Origin: Patescibacteria group bacterium
GTDB taxonomy: Bacteria > Patescibacteriota > UBA1384 > XYA2-FULL-43-10 > 1-14-0-10-43-13
NCBI GenBank assembly: GCA_041666325.1
Contig: JBAYHC010000003.1
Coordinates: 31,102-95,101 of the forward strand
Reading direction: 5' to 3'
Length of the DNA stretch: 64,000 bases
Under the pieces are notes generated by a model that was not told the origin of the DNA, did not search any database, and saw only the letters and a list, made by a program, of their open reading frames with translations. Shown one piece after another: positions 7,714-38,834 of this stretch; the first letter of the stretch is position 1, and each line of letters begins with the position of its first letter. A program made the translations under genes and the position numbers.

Positions 7714-10595
7714 CGATTGACATACTCATCAATGCCAATATACTTCTCGGTATTGTCGCCAAACCGACGCTTGTTGTGGCGCTCAAGCTCCCGCTTATAA
7801 TGCTCTTGCCGAACAGGATCAAGCCTGTTAAAATTCTTGAGTTCATTGAGACGAACGCGCAAAAACTCATACTTCGGCGGCAATTTTGCCACCAGCTTCT
7901 CTGCTTGATCAGCTGAGTTACGATACCTTGAAATTTCAGTAAAATGCTTCTTGAGACGATCACTGCCATGCTCAGCAGAATAATCTGGAACATGCGGCAA
8001 AGGTTCTGGCGACGGTCCGTGTTCAATCGGTTCGAGTGGGGCGCGACCGATAATTGGCGGCATAAATGGAACATCAACCTGTGAATCTGGTGTTGGCAAG
8101 CTCCAAATCTTGTTGTGCTCCTGTGTCACAACCGGAACCTTGTCGACAATCGTGCTATTGCCGACTCCCGGACCTTCATATGTTGCCAGGATGCGGAAAT
8201 TCTCGCAGCCATCTTTACCCTCGCCAAAAGTTTGCGCCGCCTCGCAGAAGCGGAAATTGGGTACCGGATGGCCATCTTGCAGCATCATCTTGCCGCTGGC
8301 GTCAAATTTAAACAGAACCTTTATCAGAGGATTGTCTTTATCAATAATCGCATTGCCGCGACCGTCTACCGGTACATCATAACAAAACTTCTGGGTCTCC
8401 CTCGACATTGAGAAAAGCATCTTCATGCGATTACCAGATATCAAGCGCTGAGCGTTAGTCGAGAGACTGTCATGATAAGATCCACGTGGAGTCATATGAG
8501 AAACATTGAACACGACATTGCCCTTAGGATCAACGCCATTGCTTCCGCCCCACCACAGCTTAAGTTCATTTTTGTCATAAAGCCCCGGGGTGTTGTTGTC
8601 GTACCACAAGCGGCGATGAATACGATCAAAATATTGCTTGTATTTATCTAATATCTCGCCGGCGCCAACCTTTCTGGTCCTGTCAACCATGGTGGTGATG
8701 GGGGTTTTCCGCTCTTCGACATAGACTCCGCTATCTTTGAGTATTCCTCTCGCTTGCGATGTCAGGTCGCCATTCGCATCAAAAGTTAGGCCTTTTACTG
8801 CCGGGACTGGCTCACCATCCTCAATCTTGACGATGTCATATGTGCCATCAGGGTTCTTGGCGCTAAAATCAAAACCCTTGGGCAAAGTGTGCTTGTGGCC
8901 GAGGAGGTTGACTATTGTCTTTTCATCGCCGGGTGCGGCCTGCGCCTCCTTGCCTATTGCCAGCCAACGATTAAGCTGCTGCAACAGTGTGTGCTTTGGC
9001 TGCTCGCCAAAGGGTACATTGTCCTTGCGGCCAACCCAAGATTCGACTCCTCCCTGAAGTTTGTCATCGAAGAAAGCCCTGACCTCCTGTGCCACCATGC
9101 CAACCCCGACACCAATTGCCAGACCTTTGATGCCGGCCTTCCAGGCCCGGGCACGTTTGAACTTCCGAAATTCTTCATTTTTCTGACGGGTGCCGTCAAC
9201 CATTTGCTCCATTTGGGTCTCTCGAAGCGAGCCAAAGAAATCATCGAAGCTGCGGTTATCGGGAATCATTCCTGCCTGCTCCGCGGCGCTGCGCAGAGCG
9301 CTCTTGGCTTGGTAACGAATCTTGGCAAGCTCGCAACGCTCTCGCTCAACCTTCCTCACATCGGAGTATGTCAGCAAGTCAATTTTGTCTCTATCAGATA
9401 TAGTAACACGCGCCTCAATCTCAGCCAGTTGTGCCATCGCCGACTGGAACTGCTCCGGCGTCAGCTCGCGGGGTTCGCCGACTCTGCCTCCTTCGTAGAC
9501 TGCATCACGGATTCCACTCATCAGCTCTTGAGTGCTCTTGGTTTCGTATCTATATCCCTCCATCTCGACGCGGCGTGGCGAACGATCGGGATCCCATTTT
9601 TTGTTCTTAGCCATATCGCGAAAGTGTTTCTTGCGCTCTTCCTCCGTCCGCTTGGCCTCGGCCATCGCGCCAAAGGCAGCCCCGGCGATAGCGCCACCAA
9701 CGAAGGCACCTGTAGCATAGGCGGCCTTCCTGGCAACTGACTGAGAGAGCTTGGTGCCAACACAATAAGCGAGCGCAACAGCAGAAGCAAGCGTAGTCTC
9801 ATTAACCCATTTGCCAACAGGATTGCGATGGATTCGCTCGACGACGCGGTCGACGGCATTGAATTGTGCTTCGGTGCGCACACCTTCTTTGGCCTTACCA
9901 ACATAGACATCAAATTGCAAGTTAAGCCGCTCAAAGGCAGAATCCTTGTTCTCTTCGCGCTCGATCTTAGTCCTGATCTTATTTGCGACCAACCAAAGAT
10001 TGTCGGCGTACATATCACCGCGCTCGATCACGCCCGGCCTGGCACCCTTGAGAGTTGTGAATAACCTGGCCTTTTCTTGGTCGAAGGTTTCCTTGTCTGG
10101 TAATTCTCCGGTGGCATAATCCTTGATCAACTGGCGTATCTGGTCCTTGATACCGCCGACTTGTTCTCTTTCTTCCGGGTTCTGCTCCTGCGTCTCGTCC
10201 AAAAGCTCGCGCACCTCGCCTGCTTCACGATGTATTGCTTCATCAAATTCTTGTGTAAAACGATCAGCCACCGCTTCCATAGCCTGATCATGGGCTGTCT
10301 TGTCGCCAGACTCATTGGCATATAGATTGCCCGACTCCATAATGTTCTGTCGAGCCTTTCGCACCTCTTTGTCTCGGTAGTATTCTCGAAGCCAATTGTG
10401 CTTCCAGACCGCACGCAGCTTGCCTCTAAACCCCCGGGTATCCTCCGGCTTCGCTGTTAGTTTCTCCTCGCCAGTATCAACGGCATGACTTTCGATAGAA
10501 TCAGAGACATCAACGATTGAGATCTTCTCGACTTGGCGACCATTCTCGGCGGCATCAATTTGATCGGGAGTTGGTTGGTTTCCGCTTTCTGGCAT
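6528..10595 (-). CDS. Large (1355 aa) membrane-associated protein with a C-terminal GT9-family (ADP-heptose heptosyltransferase-like) glycosyltransferase domain.
   Basis: AAGGGGG Shine-Dalgarno 6 nt before the ATG. Start is translationally coupled to the stop of the upstream small ORF. Predicted TM segments GAFVGGAIAGAAFGAMA and GLAIGVGVGMVAQ. The C-terminal ~400 aa carry GT9 hallmark motifs: N-terminal VVVIFDYPLGDAILTVPILEVIK and C-terminal SITPDTGLGHLAGAFGTPNIMI, compared with DSGPMHLAAALGTP in WaaC/WaaF. Confidence 0.8.
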   Translation of the reverse strand: MPESGNQPTPDQIDAAENGRQVEKISIVDVSDSIESHAVDTGEEKLTAKPEDTRGFRGKLRAVWKHNWLREYYRDKEVRKARQNIMESGNLYANESGDKTAHDQAMEAVADRFTQEFDEAIHREAGEVRELLDETQEQNPEEREQVGGIKDQIRQLIKDYATGELPDKETFDQEKARLFTTLKGARPGVIERGDMYADNLWLVANKIRTKIEREENKDSAFERLNLQFDVYVGKAKEGVRTEAQFNAVDRVVERIHRNPVGKWVNETTLASAVALAYCVGTKLSQSVARKAAYATGAFVGGAIAGAAFGAMAEAKRTEEERKKHFRDMAKNKKWDPDRSPRRVEMEGYRYETKSTQELMSGIRDAVYEGGRVGEPRELTPEQFQSAMAQLAEIEARVTISDRDKIDLLTYSDVRKVERERCELAKIRYQAKSALRSAAEQAGMIPDNRSFDDFFGSLRETQMEQMVDGTRQKNEEFRKFKRARAWKAGIKGLAIGVGVGMVAQEVRAFFDDKLQGGVESWVGRKDNVPFGEQPKHTLLQQLNRWLAIGKEAQAAPGDEKTIVNLLGHKHTLPKGFDFSAKNPDGTYDIVKIEDGEPVPAVKGLTFDANGDLTSQARGILKDSGVYVEERKTPITTMVDRTRKVGAGEILDKYKQYFDRIHRRLWYDNNTPGLYDKNELKLWWGGSNGVDPKGNVVFNVSHMTPRGSYHDSLSTNAQRLISGNRMKMLFSMSRETQKFCYDVPVDGRGNAIIDKDNPLIKVLFKFDASGKMMLQDGHPVPNFRFCEAAQTFGEGKDGCENFRILATYEGPGVGNSTIVDKVPVVTQEHNKIWSLPTPDSQVDVPFMPPIIGRAPLEPIEHGPSPEPLPHVPDYSAEHGSDRLKKHFTEISRYRNSADQAEKLVAKLPPKYEFLRVRLNELKNFNRLDPVRQEHYKRELERHNKRRFGDNTEKYIGIDEYVNREMNRAYYQAENILLEESAVGDAPYEPEFYEHSPLIKGLERADEVVVIFDYPLGDAILTVPILEVIKRYYDQTGHRKPIKLVTTQPGLFRSVNDQYPGLVEIVDYKEIGSAFRDNKERFIINAHKNFEDYSVFGLSGNDANDLSRVMSVDWNTWQMEESPENEQRAVKYDPIPARIMRNFEIMLGRKLVDNINAENHFMEKGADFDARADEIRDRYGLERSRKLIVISAGSSVMPKEYRPERWAEVLEQIKAKYPDAQILFIDDPDPQKSQRYGEMVDRLRSGGHRIVRAKEPLNNMPVIMEMADLSITPDTGLGHLAGAFGTPNIMIILGNPVQWSTARTHRVMHEKARDAYRESRGTYDPAWRTPNSYYTDEGVGASDIEPERVMREVERILG

Positions 10596-32902: not shown

Positions 32903-33118
32903 AGTCTCCTTTGTTAACAAAAAATGGAGTTTCCTCCAGGTTAAAAAACTCATTAGTCTAACATTGTCTCCAACTCTCGAGCCGCCCACCTCCGTGGTCA
33001 GCTCGAGGTTAGGCTCGGACCCGTGTCCGAGCAGGATTGGAAACTTGCCGCCTTTTCTCGCCCCCTATGTGTTCAGGGGGAATCACGGCTTATCGACCCG
33101 TTTCCAGGGCCGTGGCAC

Positions 33119-33616
33119 TCACTTGGCCAGCGCTTGCCGGCGCCGCTCGAGACCGAGGGCTCTTGACATTCTCTGAATCTCCCGATCTACCGCGCGCATA
33201 TTGAATTGCACGGCGTTGACAGTAGAGTAGGAACTTTCAGAGAGACAATTACCCTGCTTGTCCCGAACGATCACCCAGACGTAGTTGCCATAGTGGCCAG
33301 GCGTTACCTTGGACTCGACGATAAAGTCGGCCCCGGTAATACTGGTCCGCTTGGCACCCGCCTCGATGATCGCCTGCATTGCCCTGGAGACAAGCGGTCC
33401 GCCGTTCTTGGAAGCGACCGTCATGCCCGCGATGTCCGCCTCTTTGAGAGCACTCTTCACACTCTCAGGCAGCGCATCGTAGCGCTTGACGATCTTCGCC
33501 TCCTCGGTAGTCAGCAGACGCGGCTCGTCGTCCTTAACAGCACAACCGGCACAAGCCAGCGCAACGAACAGTAAGACAACGACTTTTTGTATTTGTTTCA
33601 CCCCCTCTCTGAGCAT
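33119..33616 (-). CDS. Lipoprotein (lipobox LACAGC) in a GC-elevated region.
   Basis: MLREGVKQIQKVVVLLFVALACAGCAV.... Confidence 0.5.
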   Translation of the reverse strand: MLREGVKQIQKVVVLLFVALACAGCAVKDDEPRLLTTEEAKIVKRYDALPESVKSALKEADIAGMTVASKNGGPLVSRAMQAIIEAGAKRTSITGADFIVESKVTPGHYGNYVWVIVRDKQGNCLSESSYSTVNAVQFNMRAVDREIQRMSRALGLERRRQALAK

Positions 33617-33698
33617 TCTCTGCTCAAGGTGAGCTCGGTTGCGGGTCGGACCCACACCCGAGCAGAGATACGAGGAGCTGCGCTTGCCGTTTTGCTGC

Positions 33699-34073
33699 TC
33701 ACTTGGCGCGAGCAAACCGGCGCTTGTAATAATCAACCTCCCTCCCTTCGTCATTGACCAGATGGTAGACGGCGATGTCCAGCCACTGGCCCGCCTCGAC
33801 CGGTCCGTTGGGATCGACGGTGCCGTCGTACTCGATCCGACCAGGCAGAGCGATCCTGCCCTCGTCGTACTCGAGACAGACGACATCCTGCTCGGTGTCC
33901 CCTCTGAGCTTGCAGGCAGCGGAGCCCGCCGGAGCCTTGACCCAGACCTCGACGAGGATGTCGCCGTTGGCCTGAGGCACGTACTCCTCTCGGGTGATCT
34001 CGCCGCCCTTGGTCTGGGCACAGCCGGCGAAAGCGAGAATGCCGAAGATAGCGATCAGTGCCAGTGCCTTCAT
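33699..34073 (-). CDS. Lipoprotein (lipobox LAFAGC).
   Basis: MKALALIAIFGILAFAGCAQ.... Confidence 0.55.
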   Translation of the reverse strand: MKALALIAIFGILAFAGCAQTKGGEITREEYVPQANGDILVEVWVKAPAGSAACKLRGDTEQDVVCLEYDEGRIALPGRIEYDGTVDPNGPVEAGQWLDIAVYHLVNDEGREVDYYKRRFARAK

Positions 34074-34711
34074 GAAACCCTTCCTTTCTGTGAACACACT
34101 ACAGTCTCCTCGCAAAGAGCTCCTTGAGCCCTTGTGCCAATAGACTGAAATGGCAACCCATTACAACAAAATCATTTACCAAAAACACACACCCTTTTGT
34201 CGCGTACGCTACAAAAGTGATGATGTTTTCAACCCTCAGAGGATAGCCCGATCACAAGATCGGGCAGGATCTATCTGAGAGCAGAAACCGGGGGCGGTGG
34301 AGATAATAGTATGGATGCTCGACTTGATAGCCAAAAACCCACACCCTCGTTCTCTCCACCAAGGCAACGAGTAGCCGTTTATAGCAACGGCGGTTGATGC
34401 CTGCCGGACACACTGGTGTGCCCAGCCCCTACGACGACATGCGGTCATCGCACAACACGACGTTATCTCGTGTTGCCGGTCTTTTCGGGCAGCGGAGTAG
34501 TTACCCACTTTTCCTCCACCGTCTTGCCGCAATCAGCCAAGCTGACACTGGCGGCAAAATAGGCTGAGCGGGTCCATGCCACCTGCGCCGAGCTCCTCGA
34601 TTAGGATCGACGACGCAAGTTAAGGCTCCTCTTTCTGCTTAACCTACCCTTACTGCTCAACCACTGGCAACAATGCTACCTAAGGTGGGTACCAGATAGT
34701 TGAGTTTTCCC

Positions 34712-34790
34712 GATGAGCATTCCGCTCTGAGTCAACCCTGAACCCGACGTGGTTCAGGGGGATATCAGAAAGGATCTGAGGTGGTGAAGA
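34712..34790. repeat. Repeat R1, containing the hairpin CCCTGAACC-n6-GGTTCAGGG.
   Basis: gagcattccgctctgagtcaaccctgaacccgacgtggttcagggggatatcagaaagg. Confidence 0.5.
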
Positions 34791-35819
34791 TAAGAACCGT
34801 CTTATCCAGACGTTCCCCGCTCTCTTCACGCAGGGCAGCCTCCCCGGCCAGGCCCTAGATGGCCCCGGCCTATTGAGTGAGCTCTAGCGGTACCACTATC
34901 TGCTGTGGTTGGCTATGTTCCCTCCCAAACAGATTTCGGGAAGCCGAGTAATCGCCCAGTTTTCCTCGGCCGTTTCACCGCACCGGTCTGATCCTTCCCC
35001 AGGGAAGAATAAGTTCCGGGGCGATAAATTCATCGAGACCAGTAAACAGCACCGTGTGCCGCCACTAATCTCACCCTTTGCGCCGGCTAGTTGAGTTGTA
35101 ACATGAGTCTATCAACCTCATGCCACCGGGTGTTCAACAATCATAGCCTGGCAATTTCAGGAAGCGTGGCCTTAATCCTGTAATTCATCCACGCTTTTCA
35201 CCGCACCAGTGGGTCTCGTGACCGTTCAAGGCGGTCGCGCCTTTCGGCTCCCGAGGTAGACCAACTGGAGGCGGCAAACAACTCGAAGGTGCTAGCACTA
35301 GGCCATCATTTGACCACCAGCACATTCTCGTCGCCTTTTTCATGACTGGGCGAATGACGGGATCGCGATTTCAGGTCGCGGCAGGTATCCCGATGCCCAG
35401 TCGCCGATTCCTTCCTCGGAGGATGGCCCGATCTCTAGTGGATCAAGGCCGGATCTTTCCGAAGAAAGAGTGGGGGTGTGGAGAATATAGTCGCCGTGGC
35501 GACCCTCGTCACCTCCACCACACCAGTTACGAGTGGGCTGAGTTACACCTCAGGTGCACCTGAGACTTGGCTCTTATGGCGGGCCTTTATCCGCCCCTGT
35601 GCCCATCTGGGACCCCCAATTTCGGGACGGCAGATAACTATCCGTCTTTCTCTGCCGGCTCGCCGCACCACACTGGGGGCGGCAAGTATCATCAAAATGT
35701 TGCGATGTCCGGTACATATCCCGGCTTGCTTTTTTTGACGACCCCTTCTTGTTGTCGATCCAGTAGGTGATTCACCCCGGCCTGTGCCGTTCGGATACTG
35801 CCTCGACAACCATTTTTAT

Positions 35820-35895
35820 TGAGCTTCCGCTCTGAGGCAACCCTGAACCCAATACGGTTCAGGGGGGATATCAGAGGGGAAATTGTGTCACCTCG
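35820..35895. repeat. Repeat R2, about 85% identical to R1.
   Basis: gagcttccgctctgaggcaaccctgaacccaatacggttcaggggggatatcagagggg. Confidence 0.5.
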
Positions 35896-36079
35896 ATTTG
35901 GATGAGTGTGGTTCGCCCTGGGTCCTCCAGGAAACAGGCGCCACGAAGGTGACAGCGGGGATCATATCTGCGCTTTCCTTTACCGCGCTTTTCTTATAAG
36001 TTTTGCAGCCCTTGGGCTATAACTTCTTATAAGACGGCCTGATACTAGCCGGATCGTTCTCGATCATCGAAGCTTCAAG

Positions 36080-36376
36080 CTACGCTGGGCTGACGGAGAG
36101 CCCCAGCTTGCCGCTCAAGAAAGCAGCGGCCACAGCCGGAGTCTTCGCCAGACTCTCGGGATACGGCAGTGATACGATCACGCCTCCCCCGACGTAGCTC
36201 CGCTCGCCCTCCCCGCGCAGTGCGTTTTCCACGTAGTGGATTCGCCCCGAGCAGGTGGTGCAATGCGAGCAGCTAATGCGGGCGACTTCTATCGCCACCT
36301 TGTCTCTGTCAAAAGAGACTTGGCGCGAATTCCGCCATCCGCCTACCCACACACGAAACCCGTGTTCAGGCATCAT
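36080..36376 (-). CDS. Possible small Cys-containing protein (CSHCTTC), weakly supported.
   Basis: GGGGGGTG ribosome-binding-like motif before ATGATG. 98-aa ORF inside the otherwise non-coding stretch. Confidence 0.3.
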   Translation of the reverse strand: MMPEHGFRVWVGGWRNSRQVSFDRDKVAIEVARISCSHCTTCSGRIHYVENALRGEGERSYVGGGVIVSLPYPESLAKTPAVAAAFLSGKLGLSVSPA

Positions 36377-36949
36377 TGTTCACCCCCTTCCCTTTTTGGT
36401 GCCTAATGCCGGCCTTTGCCTTGCGGCCGTACCGGTTTGACAAACCGCCTCAACCAGAAGTCTCATCTTTCTTCCAATTGATTTGGCTAGCCAATCAGCA
36501 GTTTCAACTTTCCAGCCATCAACTATTTGATAGCTCGAGGTTGATCCCGATCCGCCAAAGGCGAGATCGGGACAGGTAGGGATATAGGTGTTGGGCGCAG
36601 GGATTATGTCATCATCAGGGTTCGGGCCCGACGAGACCTCATTCTCCTGCCAGGCGCACTTAGGCCTTTTAATGAGTAGGGATTCCCCTATACGCCCCCT
36701 CAAGGGGAGCGAAGCGGGGGCCACCCTGGGCACACTCCTGCCACTGCCCGACCAGCGGGCCCAACACCTCTTCGGTCAACCGGCCACAGCCGTGCTTGAC
36801 TGAAGTCTTCATTGCGGTGAAGTGGAAGGGAGTTGTAGCAGACCGTACCCCGATATGCGGCTAAGGTGGTAATTATATTTCCTGCCGTCGGGGGGAGTGC
36901 CACAACTCTGCTTCCAGCTCACTGCAAATATTGTTTATTTCTCTTTCCC

Positions 36950-37091
36950 ATCATCCTGAGCGAAGCGACCGTGTCCCTCGTAGCTTTAGCGGAGTGAGAT
37001 GGATCTAGAGCCGATGCATCGGTTCACATGCGGTCGCCGCGGCGACCTAGATTCTTCGCTTCAAAGCTACATCGCTCAGAATGACAATTGG
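36950..37091. repeat. Boundary palindromic element B (TCATCCTGAGCGA ... TCGCTCAGAATGACAATTGG) at the right edge of island 3.
   Basis: About 140-bp imperfect palindrome with nested inverted repeats (GTAGCTTTAGCG/CGCTTCAAAGCTAC, GGATCTAGAG/CCTAGATTC, CCGATGCATCGG). It shares its terminal motifs with element A. Confidence 0.5.
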
Positions 37092-37423
37092 TTCTTTGTC
37101 AAACTGACTTGACTTATACTGTGGTTAATGAAAAATCTTATGTTTGCAACCTATTGGCTTAAATTAAGCCTCACATGGCTGATTTATTTATAAGTTTCTC
37201 ATTCACCAGGACACAATGCTACCATATTGTTTTTATTTTGTCAATGCTAGTTGACATATTTATATAACAGTTATTACATTTGTCAAGTCAGGGACTACAA
37301 AATTACCACCAATTTATTTAGTGAATGCTATGAAAGTGTTATATATAGCGGACAGATTGTCATCACCTGTTTAGCTTTATTCAAGACTAATTTCTTACTA
37401 TTTTGTTCGGTGATGGCAGTAAG

Positions 37424-37452
37424 TATTGACAATATTATTATTCTGTGCTAAC
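37424..37452 (+). promoter_or_regulatory. Strong sigma70-like promoter (TTGACA-17-TAACAT) in an AT-rich region that also carries TTGTCAA/TTGACA operator-like palindromes.
   Basis: agtaTTGACAatattattattctgtgcTAACATtgtgagc. tgtcaatgctagttgaca at about 37240. Confidence 0.45.
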
Positions 37453-37454
37453 AT

Positions 37455-37905
37455 TGTGAGCGTAATCCTGCAGAAGGGAGGACTCAAACCGGGAAGTGCC
37501 CCAACACTGGGGGCGAGACGACTGTCTAGCTTCCCGGGGCAAACCTCCGGGAATCGTCTGGTGGTATCACCGTTCGGTCTCCGGAGGGAGGTGGAGCTAT
37601 GGATACATGAGTATCCTGCGCTTGCCGGGCGCCTTATGGGCGCCCGTGGAAGCAATAGCTTCGCCATCCTGCCTGAGGAAGAAAGAAATGGATGTCTGAA
37701 AAAGAGAGGCGGCCAATTGCCGCCGGATGGAAGACGATCGTGTCATTTTCGCTCGTTGGCTTGGCCGTCGGCAAATCAGCCAGCGGCTAGGCACACAGCG
37801 ATAGCCTGAGTGCGCCCGAGGACGGGTCACTCTCGAAAGGATCTGCTACATCATATGGGCAGATAGCGACCACAAAGGCGCCCCGACTAGCGGGGCGCCC
37901 ATTTT
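37455..37905 (+). ncRNA. Candidate ~450-nt non-coding RNA of unknown class, GC-rich, lying between the promoter and the intrinsic terminator.
   Basis: No credible ORF; the only track ORF starts inside the promoter and is low-complexity. Internal GC hairpins such as CGGGCGCC-ttat-GGGCGCCCG. Terminator hairpin at the 3' end. No plus-strand gene lies downstream. Confidence 0.35.
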
Positions 37906-37910
37906 ATTAC
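37873..37910 (+). terminator. Intrinsic terminator GGCGCCCCG-actag-CGGGGCGCC followed by CATTTTATT.
   Basis: Perfect 9-bp GC stem followed by a U-rich tract. Confidence 0.55.
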
Positions 37911-38075: not shown

Positions 38076-38834
38076 CTACTTGTGAGCACCTTGCCAAGCA
38101 AGCTCAAATATTAACTTCATATTCTGTGCAAACTCCTTGCTCTCGATGACCACCCCATGAGGCTTCTCAGGATGAAAATAGTACAGCTTTATTCCCCAAT
38201 CAGGATAAACTGTCATCGTCATATTAAGCGGAAACTTGTCTCGCGAGATGAAGACGCCATCTCGCAGTTCTGCCTCGTTTTTGAAGGAAGGGATCTCGCC
38301 ATCCTCATGGGTGTAGATTGCCCTGGATCGAATACCCAGCTTGATACGCTCACCAAGCGACTGCTGTCTTCTGTCCTTAAAATACTTCTCCATGACATCA
38401 ATCGGGGCGATACTCAAGATCTCTGAGTTTTTCTTAAGTAAATTTCGACCATATCGATCCATGGCCATTAATCCATCAGCACCCTCGAAATAACGCACGA
38501 CTGGCTTGCCGCTCTGGGCATTATTCAGAGCCATTAGTTGGTTCATGATCTCTTTGAGTTCATTCTTCCTCTCATCGATCTCTGACTGCTGCTTCTTTAG
38601 AAGATTTTCTAGCTCTTTTGGGTCTTCCGCGATAAATAATGTTTTTTTGCCCTGCTCAACCGTGCTGACTAGGCCAAGCTTCATCAGTTTGTCTAAAATT
38701 ACATAGGCCGTGGGACGGTTGACGTCGGCTTTTTTGGCGATGTTTTGAACAGTATCTTGGGCAAGCTCGAGCGCCGCCAAATATACCTTGGCCTCTTTCT
38801 CTGATAGGCCAAGCTTTATAAGAGTTGTAAGCAT
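38076..38834 (-). CDS. TrmB-family transcriptional regulator.
   Basis: N-terminal winged helix-turn-helix LGLSEKEAKVYLAALELAQDTVQNIAKKADVNRPTAYVILDKLMKLGLV. Start is taken at MLTTLIK. Confidence 0.7.
   Translation of the reverse strand: MLTTLIKLGLSEKEAKVYLAALELAQDTVQNIAKKADVNRPTAYVILDKLMKLGLVSTVEQGKKTLFIAEDPKELENLLKKQQSEIDERKNELKEIMNQLMALNNAQSGKPVVRYFEGADGLMAMDRYGRNLLKKNSEILSIAPIDVMEKYFKDRRQQSLGERIKLGIRSRAIYTHEDGEIPSFKNEAELRDGVFISRDKFPLNMTMTVYPDWGIKLYYFHPEKPHGVVIESKEFAQNMKLIFELAWQGAHK

Follow-up and report, generated by a model that had tools for sequence, protein, structure and literature searches.

Patescibacteria, also known as the candidate phyla radiation (CPR), make up a large share of bacterial diversity, and their cells hold only tens of ribosomes. 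To our knowledge, the ways in which they regulate themselves are almost wholly uncharted, and very few of their non-coding RNAs have been described. In the bar minigenes of phage lambda (AUG AUA stop), the effect comes from the act of translation and from peptidyl-tRNA drop-off, not from the peptide. A ribosome bound to a STAB-SD element, to the ermC or hbs leaders, or to the ribosome-binding site (RBS) of a mini open reading frame (mini-ORF) on a type III secretion mRNA blocks 5'-to-3' decay (PMC3997798). In the fthC motif, the stop codon is carried in stem P2 (PMC11109978). In this study, we analysed a plus-strand transcription unit at 37461-37908 of a 64,000-nucleotide stretch of DNA from a Patescibacteria group bacterium (contig JBAYHC010000003.1; the whole stretch is called the window). 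A first, sequence-only reading had described the unit as a candidate novel non-coding RNA beside a TrmB-family regulator. This description was fair, as the RNA has no Rfam match and its position, promoter, terminator and fold are conserved. With high confidence, we assign it to a conserved, structured, Rfam-absent RNA family that is defined by Shine-Dalgarno (SD) sites with mini-ORFs and is linked to TrmB-like genes. The family is widespread in Patescibacteria and apparently undescribed.

A transcription unit tail-to-tail with a TrmB-like gene

The unit and its neighbour consist of the following features.

37426-37431 and 37449-37454, plus strand: promoter of the RNA (consensus scan), TTGACA, a 17-nt spacer ending in TG, and TAACAT
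37461..37908, plus strand: RNA gene, about 445 nt, 59% GC
~37626-37647, plus strand: internal hairpin CGGGCGCC-TTAT-GGGCGCCCG
37877-37908, plus strand: intrinsic terminator, hairpin GGCGCCCCG-ACTAG-CGGGGCGCC at 37877-37899 with 9/9 G-C pairs and a 5-nt loop, then the U-rich tail CATTTTATTA
38076..38834, minus strand: gene for a TrmB-like winged-helix regulator of 252 aa (Pfam PF01978), tail-to-tail with the RNA

The promoter matches the consensus at 10 of 12 positions and has an extended -10 element (TGnTAACAT), which puts the presumed start of transcription at about 37461. Promoter (37426-37454) and terminator hairpin (37877-37899) were the best plus-strand sites of the consensus scan. The GC content is 31-36% over 37100-37450 and 57-60% over 37500-37900. 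No plus-strand ORF was found 3' of the terminator; the next gene is the convergent trmB-like gene, which the terminator hairpin could also serve. The minimum free energy of 37461-37905 is -218 kcal/mol (z = -6.9 against dinucleotide shuffles, and z = -4.7 for the antisense strand), and the predicted fold is multi-branched with 8-10 helices. The sequence-only reading had named a free-standing unit with promoter, GC-rich body and terminator, an internal stable hairpin, a minus-strand trmB-like gene as the next gene, and a sole ORF that begins inside the promoter; we recovered each of these, the last being a 127-aa ORF (37426-37809) that begins at the -35 box. The fold energy, together with the recurrence of the layout in 13 related contigs, argues that the unit is more than a chance arrangement.

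An RNA family recovered by synteny

Relatives of the RNA were sought through the TrmB-like anchor only, in 160 loci that surround TrmB-like homologues, drawn from genome and metagenome collections, and in three further loci from exact-protein look-ups; the relatives are metagenomic, and single loci are cited by L numbers. Pairwise alignment of the window RNA with its nearest relative (L168) by MAFFT gave a meaningless 39% alignment. The same layout was nevertheless present in 13 other Berkelbacteria-like contigs, the TrmB-like proteins of which are 54-71% identical to that of the window. It comprises an AT-rich spacer with a TGTCAA...TGACA palindrome, a promoter, a GC-rich body of 310-580 nt and a terminator by the trmB stop codon. 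The promoter TTGAC(A/T)-17-TAnnnT was found in 13 of the 14 units, 12 of them with the TG extension, the fourteenth being cut by the contig end, and the terminator adjoins the trmB-like stop codon in all family members. For 13 non-redundant RNAs, the fold of the sense strand reached z values of -5.0 to -12.0 (mean -8.6) against a mean of -6.4 for the antisense strand, and the sense strand was the more negative one in 10/13.

These observations bear on the simplest alternative, namely that the unit is non-functional sequence: a decayed gene, the remnant of a mobile element, or a chance promoter and terminator. The stretch 33000-37050 is unusually GC-rich and ORF-poor, and two assemblies break at ~37029, as would suit this explanation. 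On the other hand, the same unit sits in the same place in the 13 other contigs despite the divergence of their TrmB-like proteins, its motifs are kept despite complete turnover of the sequence, and neither phage nor plasmid matches were found. We regard non-functional sequence as scarcely credible.

Shine-Dalgarno sites and three-codon ORFs form the conserved core

At the core of the RNA, conservation falls on a set of ribosome-loading modules and not on a long ORF or on a known ribozyme or aptamer. In the window, these modules read as follows.

37587-37593, plus strand: RBS GGAGGUG, followed by a 5-nt spacer
37599-37610, plus strand: mini-ORF 1, AUG GAU ACA UGA (MDT, stop)
37675..37699, plus strand: purine-rich GAGGAAGAAAGAA, then mini-ORF 2, AUG GAU GUC UGA, at 37688-37699 (MDV, stop)
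37476..37481, plus strand: 5'-proximal SD-like GGGAGG within GAAGGGAGG (37473-37481), ~15 nt from the presumed 5' end

A GGAGGUG-like SD, a spacer of 3-6 nt, a start codon, six nucleotides and a stop codon were present in 14/14 members (in L166 the spacer is longer and the SD is GGAGUG), and all 14 have a second start-6 nt-stop arrangement 58-106 nt downstream of mini-ORF 1. Codon 2 of the mini-ORFs is Asp, Gly, Asn, Ser or Gln, codon 3 is often Gly, and UAA, UAG and UGA are all used. The spacing between SD and AUG matches that of real genes on the same contigs. In 126 non-redundant 700-nt regions convergent with TrmB-like genes, taken from many Patescibacteria lineages, GGAG(G)-N3-10-ATG followed by exactly two sense codons and a stop occurs at 0.424/kb, against 0.031/kb elsewhere in the loci (14-fold). 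In the same test, ORFs with three or four sense codons were ~7-fold enriched, and those with none or one showed no enrichment. In distant lineages, labelled by their record titles as Yanofskybacteria, Moranbacteria, Falkowbacteria, Giovannonibacteria, Sungbacteria and others, the ORF has the form Met-Gly-x(1-4)-stop and is preceded by an anti-SD/SD hairpin, in which CCCUCCUG pairs with CAGGAGGG of the SD.

The 13 RNAs are rich in SD-like sequence in general. GGAGG occurs 30 times (9.2 +/- 2.8 in shuffles), with 2-6 sites per RNA, and GGAGGUG occurs 12 times (0.5 expected). In 11/13 members (all but L168 and L166), an (A)AAGGAGG-type element is present at a distance of 2-59 nt from the 5' end and is not consistently followed by a start codon; in the window, no AUG, GUG or UUG was read 4-12 nt after the 5' SD. 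In many members this element reads (G)AAAGGAGG, which we take to be the cryIIIA STAB-SD sequence. The term non-coding of the sequence-only reading thus holds in part: no known RNA and no shared long ORF was found, but the most conserved features, which that reading missed, are SD sites with three-codon ORFs.

The GGAGG elements could be read differently, as a protein sponge or scaffold in which GGAGG/GGA elements titrate a CsrA-like factor, bS1, bS21 or the TrmB-like protein, AUG-6 nt-stop being a by-product. This would suit the 3.3-fold enrichment of GGAGG, the sites of which lie partly in loops and junctions, and the conserved linkage to a gene for a nucleic-acid-binding protein. It would also suit the strong promoter and the stand-alone position, which are those of the CsrB/RsmZ-type sponge RNAs. 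A sponge does not, however, explain the conserved start codon, the exact two-codon length, the closure by UAA, UAG or UGA, or the gene-like SD-AUG spacing; moreover, the ORFs of the distant lineages vary from three to six codons, yet always open with AUG GGN and close with a stop. We therefore prefer ribosome loading to protein titration, which appears improbable.

We also considered that the mini-ORF RBS mimics that of trmB, and rejected this since only a generic SD is common to both. A third start-6 nt-stop arrangement in the window (AUG GGC AGA UAG, 37855-37866, plus strand) lies in a hairpin just before the terminator; it has no upstream SD and may be due to chance.

No longer reading frame is shared

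The 14 close members have no ORF of more than three codons in common. Six of them have an in-frame stop 1-9 codons before mini-ORF 1, which is thus not the tail of a longer ORF; the idea that the mini-ORFs are C-terminal ends of longer frames was rejected on this ground. L007 and L095 are 84% identical, and two 2-nt indels separate them in the conserved 5' half.

These data have to be set against the proposal that the unit is the mRNA of a small protein, encoded by 37426-37809 or 37496-37699, with the structure being incidental. The latter frame, of 67 codons, is in phase with mini-ORF 2 and ends at its stop codon, and a distant subgroup has an ORF of 32-49 codons that is open up to or through the mini-ORF, both of which would favour a protein product. 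On the other side, the 127-aa ORF begins in the -35 box and has no Pfam match, the 5' SD of the window lacks a start codon, no longer frame is common to the 14 members, six of them have the in-frame stops before mini-ORF 1, and L007 and L095 differ by the 2-nt indels. In addition, GC-rich sequence yields long open frames by chance. A small-protein mRNA is quite unlikely, and we retain ribosome loading on the mini-ORFs as the preferred reading.

The ORF of the distant subgroup (L019, L115, L120, L025, L069, L109, L031, L134 and L113) is of interest in itself. It runs from the 5' SD with the pattern MLSxxxSEKP...G.KRR...PP; in all eight sequences with a located start codon, and in L025 as judged by hand, it stops at the mini-ORF, shortly before it, or in frame with it. 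This frame may encode a leader peptide by which the mini-ORF is unmasked, or else a genuine small protein. Potentially, translation of this upstream frame would open the anti-SD/SD hairpin, a part that in the subgroup of the window might be taken by a 30S subunit bound at the start-less 5' SD.

A conserved three-way junction around mini-ORF 1

The same three-way-junction design was obtained in separate folds of most members. In the window, it is made up of the following elements.

37590-37600 with 37655-37665, plus strand: helix P1, GGUGGAGCUAU with AUAGCUUCGCC (folds and covariance alignment)
37590..37665, plus strand: three-way junction, in which P1 encloses H2 (37601-37616) and the GC-rich H3 (37625-37648)
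37544-37551 with 37580-37587, plus strand: helix P0, CCUCCGGG with CCCGGAGG, just 5' of the SD (folds)
37530..37587, plus strand: alternative pairings, CCUCCGGG either with upstream CUUCCCGGGG (37530-37539) or with downstream CCGGAGG (37581-37587) as P0, mutually exclusive

The 5' strand of P1 runs from the 3' part of the SD through the spacer into the AU of the start codon, and its partner lies 55-65 nt downstream. Mini-ORF 1 itself folds into H2 and places its stop codon in or at the loop. In the predicted ensembles, the SD of mini-ORF 1 (SD1) has a mean unpaired probability of 0.27, and the two stop codons have 0.61 and 0.70. For the alternative pairings of the window, energies of -14.7 kcal/mol (upstream hairpin) and -26.5 kcal/mol (P0 domain) were calculated, and a matching upstream arrangement of (U)UCCCGG(G)G and C..CGG..G segments was seen by eye in ~10/13 members. 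The P1 strands are wholly different between members and keep their complementarity, as the following 5'/3' strands illustrate.

Window, P1: GAGCUAU / AUAGCUU
L168, P1: UCGUCAUG / CAUGACC
L008, P1: CACGU / ACGU
L007, P1: GACGC / GCGUC
L089, P1: GGAGGUGAU / AUCACCUCU

MAFFT with RNAalifold on eight core segments returned 0 pairs, because MAFFT is unable to align helices that have no common sequence. Since alignment-based folding failed, a covariance model (R1) was built from the window sequence only and was searched with filters off over 81 kb. It found the correct site and strand in seven relatives (L166 with E = 0.002, L168, L095, L007, L087, L089 and L090) and missed L006 and L008. In the model alignment, counted by hand over six true rows that are themselves fitted to the window-derived structure, 145/153 pairs were standard, and the columns of P1 and H2 each showed 2-4 pair types. 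A counting tool, in a run whose figures are inflated by two antisense self-matches, gave 93.1% paired cells, against 71.5% in shuffles (0/500 reach the observed value) and 42-51% with a slid partner. In this model-based alignment, both-sided changes were found at 11/13 P1 pairs and 6/6 H2 pairs, and P0 pairs were mostly invariant. Independently of any alignment, the local hairpin at mini-ORF 1 (H2) was supported with p = 1e-5. In the covariation analysis, a check that the sequence-only reading had proposed, both-sided changes were found in P1 and H2 on a model-fitted alignment; RNAalifold gave no pairs, and the alignment-free signal for P1, given below, is only moderate.

Pairings of this kind would also be part of a cis-antisense attenuator, a leader-like sensor made of a tiny upstream ORF (uORF) and alternative helices. 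Its sole output would be how often RNA polymerase passes the terminator and enters the convergent trmB-like gene, and antisense transcription or interference would thereby set the level of the TrmB-like protein. The tail-to-tail order is kept across very divergent lineages, with the terminator ~10-170 nt from the trmB stop. The SD, the tiny ORF with its stop in a hairpin, and the terminator resemble uORF attenuators, e.g., the fthC motif (PMC11109978), and there are mutually exclusive pairings upstream of SD1. However, the terminator is very strong (9 G-C pairs) and lies ~180-200 nt past the last mini-ORF, with non-conserved sequence in between. A conserved anti-terminator was not found among the members: the sole cross-pairing uses the self-complementary GGCGCC, which is absent in relatives, and H3 was rejected as an anti-terminator because its pairing rests on this palindrome. 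A pure leader would also have no need of a body of 300-580 nt that folds with z of about -9. This attenuator is unlikely in our view, and a stable RNA with ribosome-loading modules is the reading we carry forward.

Comparison with known RNA families

No match was found in the full 64-kb window with the 4227 covariance models of Rfam 15 at gathering thresholds, and relaxed scans of 5 kb and of 481 nt (the latter with E up to 10) gave chance-level matches only. The best sub-threshold match, asX2 (21.8 bits against a gathering score of 70), covers only the terminator hairpin. Rfam scans of 30 related loci gave no relevant match for the RNA. ARAGORN called no transfer RNA (tRNA) or transfer-messenger RNA (tmRNA) at the RNA, no tmRNA in the window and nothing relevant in 25 related loci. 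Neither tRNA-like ends or domain nor a match to the Rfam tmRNA clan was seen, and the frames have an SD and AUG instead. For RNase P RNA, the conserved regions CR-I (GGAAAGUCC-type) and CR-V (ACAGAA...GGCUUA-type) are absent and no model matched at E up to 10. Likewise, neither the model for signal recognition particle (SRP) RNA nor that for 6S RNA matched at E up to 10. A domain IV motif of SRP RNA was not seen on reading, and the multi-branched predicted fold contrasts with the single long hairpin with a central bubble that typifies 6S RNA. The RNA region had no blastn match in phage and plasmid collections, and no description of such a CPR RNA turned up in literature searches. The Rfam scan suggested by the sequence-only reading has thus been run and yields no known family at gathering or relaxed thresholds, and the RNase P, tmRNA and SRP signatures that it could not recognise were likewise not found by the models or by reading.

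The unit might still be a diverged housekeeping RNA (RNase P RNA, tmRNA, SRP RNA or 6S RNA) or a riboswitch. A strong promoter and a GC-rich structured body in a more AT-rich genome are typical of stable RNAs, CPR RNAs are often divergent, and L006, L007 and L091 have tmRNA-like elements close to the cassette. Against this, the 481 nt match none of the 4227 families at E up to 10, nor do 26 related loci, and none of the tRNA-like ends, RNase P regions or SRP motifs is present. A riboswitch would have no downstream gene to control. Relatives with tmRNA-like genes also carry the RNA, and therefore the RNA is not the tmRNA. Overall, a housekeeping RNA or riboswitch is very unlikely, and the assignment to a family of its own stands.

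The tmRNA-like elements deserve separate mention. Shortened tmRNA-like genes were found in L006 (9293-9373, plus strand; 81 nt; Rfam tmRNA 67.6 bits, gathering 47) and in L007 (7921-8056, plus strand; 136 nt; 61.7 bits); both have an acceptor stem, a T-arm and CCA, with hardly any space for a tag reading frame. In L091, a 69-nt tmRNA look-alike ending in GGGGUUCAACUCCCCGCGGCUCCACCA lies directly 5' of the mini-ORF RNA on the same strand, ~470-540 nt past the trmB-like stop. ARAGORN calls none of the three. If they are the sole tmRNAs of their genomes, this would be an unusual reduction. We considered that the RNA supplies the missing mRNA-like half of such genes and rejected this, as it has no free strand for tethering, its frames are driven by SD and AUG, and only 3 of ~14 loci have such a gene nearby. 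In addition, L014, from a Patescibacteria metagenome-assembled genome, has a type III hammerhead ribozyme match (7988-8043, plus strand; 48.7 bits, gathering 48.5) ~1.2 kb from its TrmB-like gene.

The TrmB-like regulator and a conserved palindrome

Residues 7-72 of the TrmB-like protein match PF01978 (E 6.3e-15; 55.2 bits against a cut-off of 25.6), which identifies an N-terminal winged helix-turn-helix, and the Pfam scan of residues 110-252, the part in which a C-terminal sugar-binding domain would be expected for the TrmB family, gave no match. The protein is identical to one annotated from a Patescibacteria metagenome-assembled genome. Its 374 homologues belong to Patescibacteria or Berkelbacteria wherever named, and the closest labelled ones to Candidatus Berkelbacteria. 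Housekeeping genes (cysS, recR, topA, dprA, nusG and rplK) surround the trmB-like gene. Upstream of the RNA, two further features were identified.

37239..37256: palindrome tgtcaatgctagttgaca (TGTCAA-TGCTAGT-TGACA), an operator-like inverted repeat (read from the sequence)
37216..37244, minus strand: divergent promoter, TTGACA, 17 nt and TAGCAT with TG, 10/12 matches (promoter scan)

The motif TGTCAA-N5-9-TGACA was present in 59/116 non-redundant regions 3' of TrmB-like genes, at a median of 497 nt from the trmB stop, and its density downstream of TrmB-like genes is 0.427/kb, compared with 0.0137/kb elsewhere in the loci (31-fold). In relatives, the right half is frequently CTGACA or ATGACA, and thus the conserved feature is the inverted-repeat symmetry and not a second -35 box. 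The left half is the -35 box of the divergent minus-strand promoter, an arrangement also found in L089 and L019. The most direct target of the palindrome would therefore be the divergent unit and not the promoter of the RNA, which is ~190 bp away. Several distant lineages have a further copy that overlaps the -35 box of the RNA promoter; this copy is degenerate in the window. The proposal of the sequence-only reading that TTGTCAA/TGACA palindromes are operators therefore gains from their conservation and 31-fold enrichment, but their most direct target would be the divergent unit and not the RNA promoter. As a conserved neighbour with a DNA-binding domain, the TrmB-like protein is the obvious candidate binder, and the palindrome is a likely binding site of this protein, which would link the cassette to the regulator.

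In a subgroup of Patescibacteria, the promoter divergent from the mini-ORF RNA drives a conserved GC-rich, RNA-like block of ~230 nt, the 3' half of which is a long imperfect hairpin. Within the group, it is found by nhmmer with E 1e-50 to 1e-73; it has no Rfam match even at E up to 1 and was not detected in the window. Copies of the block lie at the following positions.

L019: 6044-6276, plus strand
L115: 4347-4595
L109: 6318-6635
L069: 7200-7463
L113: 6161-6388
L025: 4311-4610
L024: 8304-8562
L134: 6279-6545

Other features of the surrounding DNA

From ~33000 to 37050, the window has 52-65% GC, against ~42-50% in the flanking genes, and none of the genes called there matches Pfam. L003 and L004, which are independent assemblies of the same strain, both end at the equivalent of ~37029, which suggests a repeat or a strain-variable boundary. 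Within this region, the 2 kb from 34098 to 36079 contain no called gene at 52-60% GC. A hairpin motif, CUCUGAG(G/U)CA-stem-loop-stem-GGAUAUCAGA(R)(R)GGA, occurs there twice, at 34725-34774 and 35830-35880, and L089 (7039-6993, minus strand) has the same flanks around an entirely different yet complementary stem. This stretch may be another unannotated structured RNA. A 98-aa ORF with a CxHCxxC motif (36080-36376, minus strand) is homologous to L089 6426-6800, which points to a real small gene, although it has no Pfam match. The 220 nt directly 3' of this ORF (35856-36079) are conserved as DNA in L089, L100, L011, L015 and L007 (nhmmer E 1e-12 to 1e-37).

A possible role in sensing or buffering translational capacity

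Taken together, we favour a stable structured RNA with conserved ribosome-loading modules that acts as a translation-coupled riboregulator or ribosome buffer in a TrmB-like cassette, a reading to which we give an even chance. More tentatively, a mechanism of ribosome relay, roadblock and buffer can be proposed, which is possible rather than probable. Ribosomes (30S or 70S) would bind the 5' SD and the mini-ORF sites, and occupancy or translation of an upstream site would melt the helix that masks the next one. The upstream hairpin and P0 might switch first, and P1, H2 and H3 might then melt as mini-ORF 1 is translated. If binding at one site unmasks the next, uptake of ribosomes would be cooperative and proportional to the free translational capacity. 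Bound ribosomes might also shield the RNA from 5'-to-3' decay, as STAB-SD elements and mini-ORF roadblocks do, and the number of ribosomes held would serve as a sensor or buffer of translational capacity.

Several findings weigh against this reading. Searches of the 160 related loci with 37455-37910 by nhmmer and sensitive blastn found nothing, RNAalifold gave no pairs, the R1 model missed two members, and the covariation counts have the narrow, window-fitted base described above. Without alignment, P1 is only moderately supported (Fisher p = 0.0013 for the energy of the duplex relative to shuffled partners; the single p-values mostly lie between 0.01 and 0.5), and for a local hairpin at mini-ORF 2 there is no support (p = 0.2). 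The SD of mini-ORF 2 is weaker, with no clear SD in several members. Translation of the mini-ORFs is deduced from sequence, and the conserved AUG...URR could in principle be an RNA motif and not a reading frame. The sole full palindrome of the window is distant from the promoter of the RNA. Finally, neither RNase J nor RNase Y was among the 10 large window ORFs that were scanned. Of the rivals, only the antisense attenuator and the sponge are left reasonably open by the data.

It is tempting to speculate further that these RNAs are a phylum-wide regulatory class that engages ribosomes, in which a gated cascade of SD sites and three-codon ORFs, transcribed from one of the strongest promoters of the genome in a TrmB-like-governed cassette, measures or buffers translational capacity. 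In this full form the proposal is doubtful. If confirmed, a start codon, two codons and a stop after an RBS would be an unusual target for selection to preserve. If ribosomes do load, the RNA would offer a testable handle on how ultra-small, ribosome-poor cells sense or ration translation, and the palindromic operator cassette would be the first target set for the ubiquitous TrmB-like regulators of CPR. In general, synteny combined with motif logic can recover RNA families that sequence similarity and alignment-based folding miss.

Relation to described systems

Large stand-alone RNAs such as the raiA motif, OLE, ROOL and GOLLD are like the present RNA in being several hundred nucleotides long, highly structured and lineage-restricted, with a conserved neighbourhood. 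However, they have conserved sequence cores, whereas here almost only the SD/mini-ORF modules and the helices are conserved, with no Rfam match. With tmRNA, the RNA shares a stable structure, an internal short frame and a stop codon in a hairpin loop; unlike tmRNA, it has no tRNA-like domain or resume codon, uses an SD and AUG, and co-exists with tmRNA-like genes. The lambda bar minigenes are similar as two tiny SD-driven ORFs in an otherwise non-coding transcript, but they have two codons, are phage-borne and lie outside any conserved structured RNA. Moreover, the codons of the mini-ORFs vary (Asp, Gly or Asn, then any residue), and thus, unlike in bar, no single tRNA would be sequestered.

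Closer parallels are found among uORF and leader-peptide attenuators (fthC, ilvB, ermC, cat and the trp type with its 1:2/2:3/3:4 pairings). As in these, an SD, an AUG and an in-frame stop lie in hairpins, alternative pairings mask the SD, and a terminator follows. However, no same-strand regulated ORF lies downstream in the 14 close members or in the distant ones, and therefore the RNA lacks the defining feature of a cis-acting leader. At three codons (3-6 in distant lineages), its ORF also lacks the length needed to fill the exit tunnel or to sense the supply of amino acids. Each RNA has 2-3 ribosome sites, and a long distance separates the terminator from the ORFs. The 5' roadblocks of the STAB-SD type (Bacillus cryIIIA, ermC and hbs leaders) share with the RNA a strong start-less SD near the 5' end, which is present here, and strong RBSs on tiny ORFs. 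These roadblocks are accessories of protein-coding mRNAs, whereas the window RNA has no downstream protein gene and the modules are its core. By analogy, the RNA probably works most like the ribosome-roadblock elements and the uORF attenuators, and there is a modest chance that it represents a class of its own.

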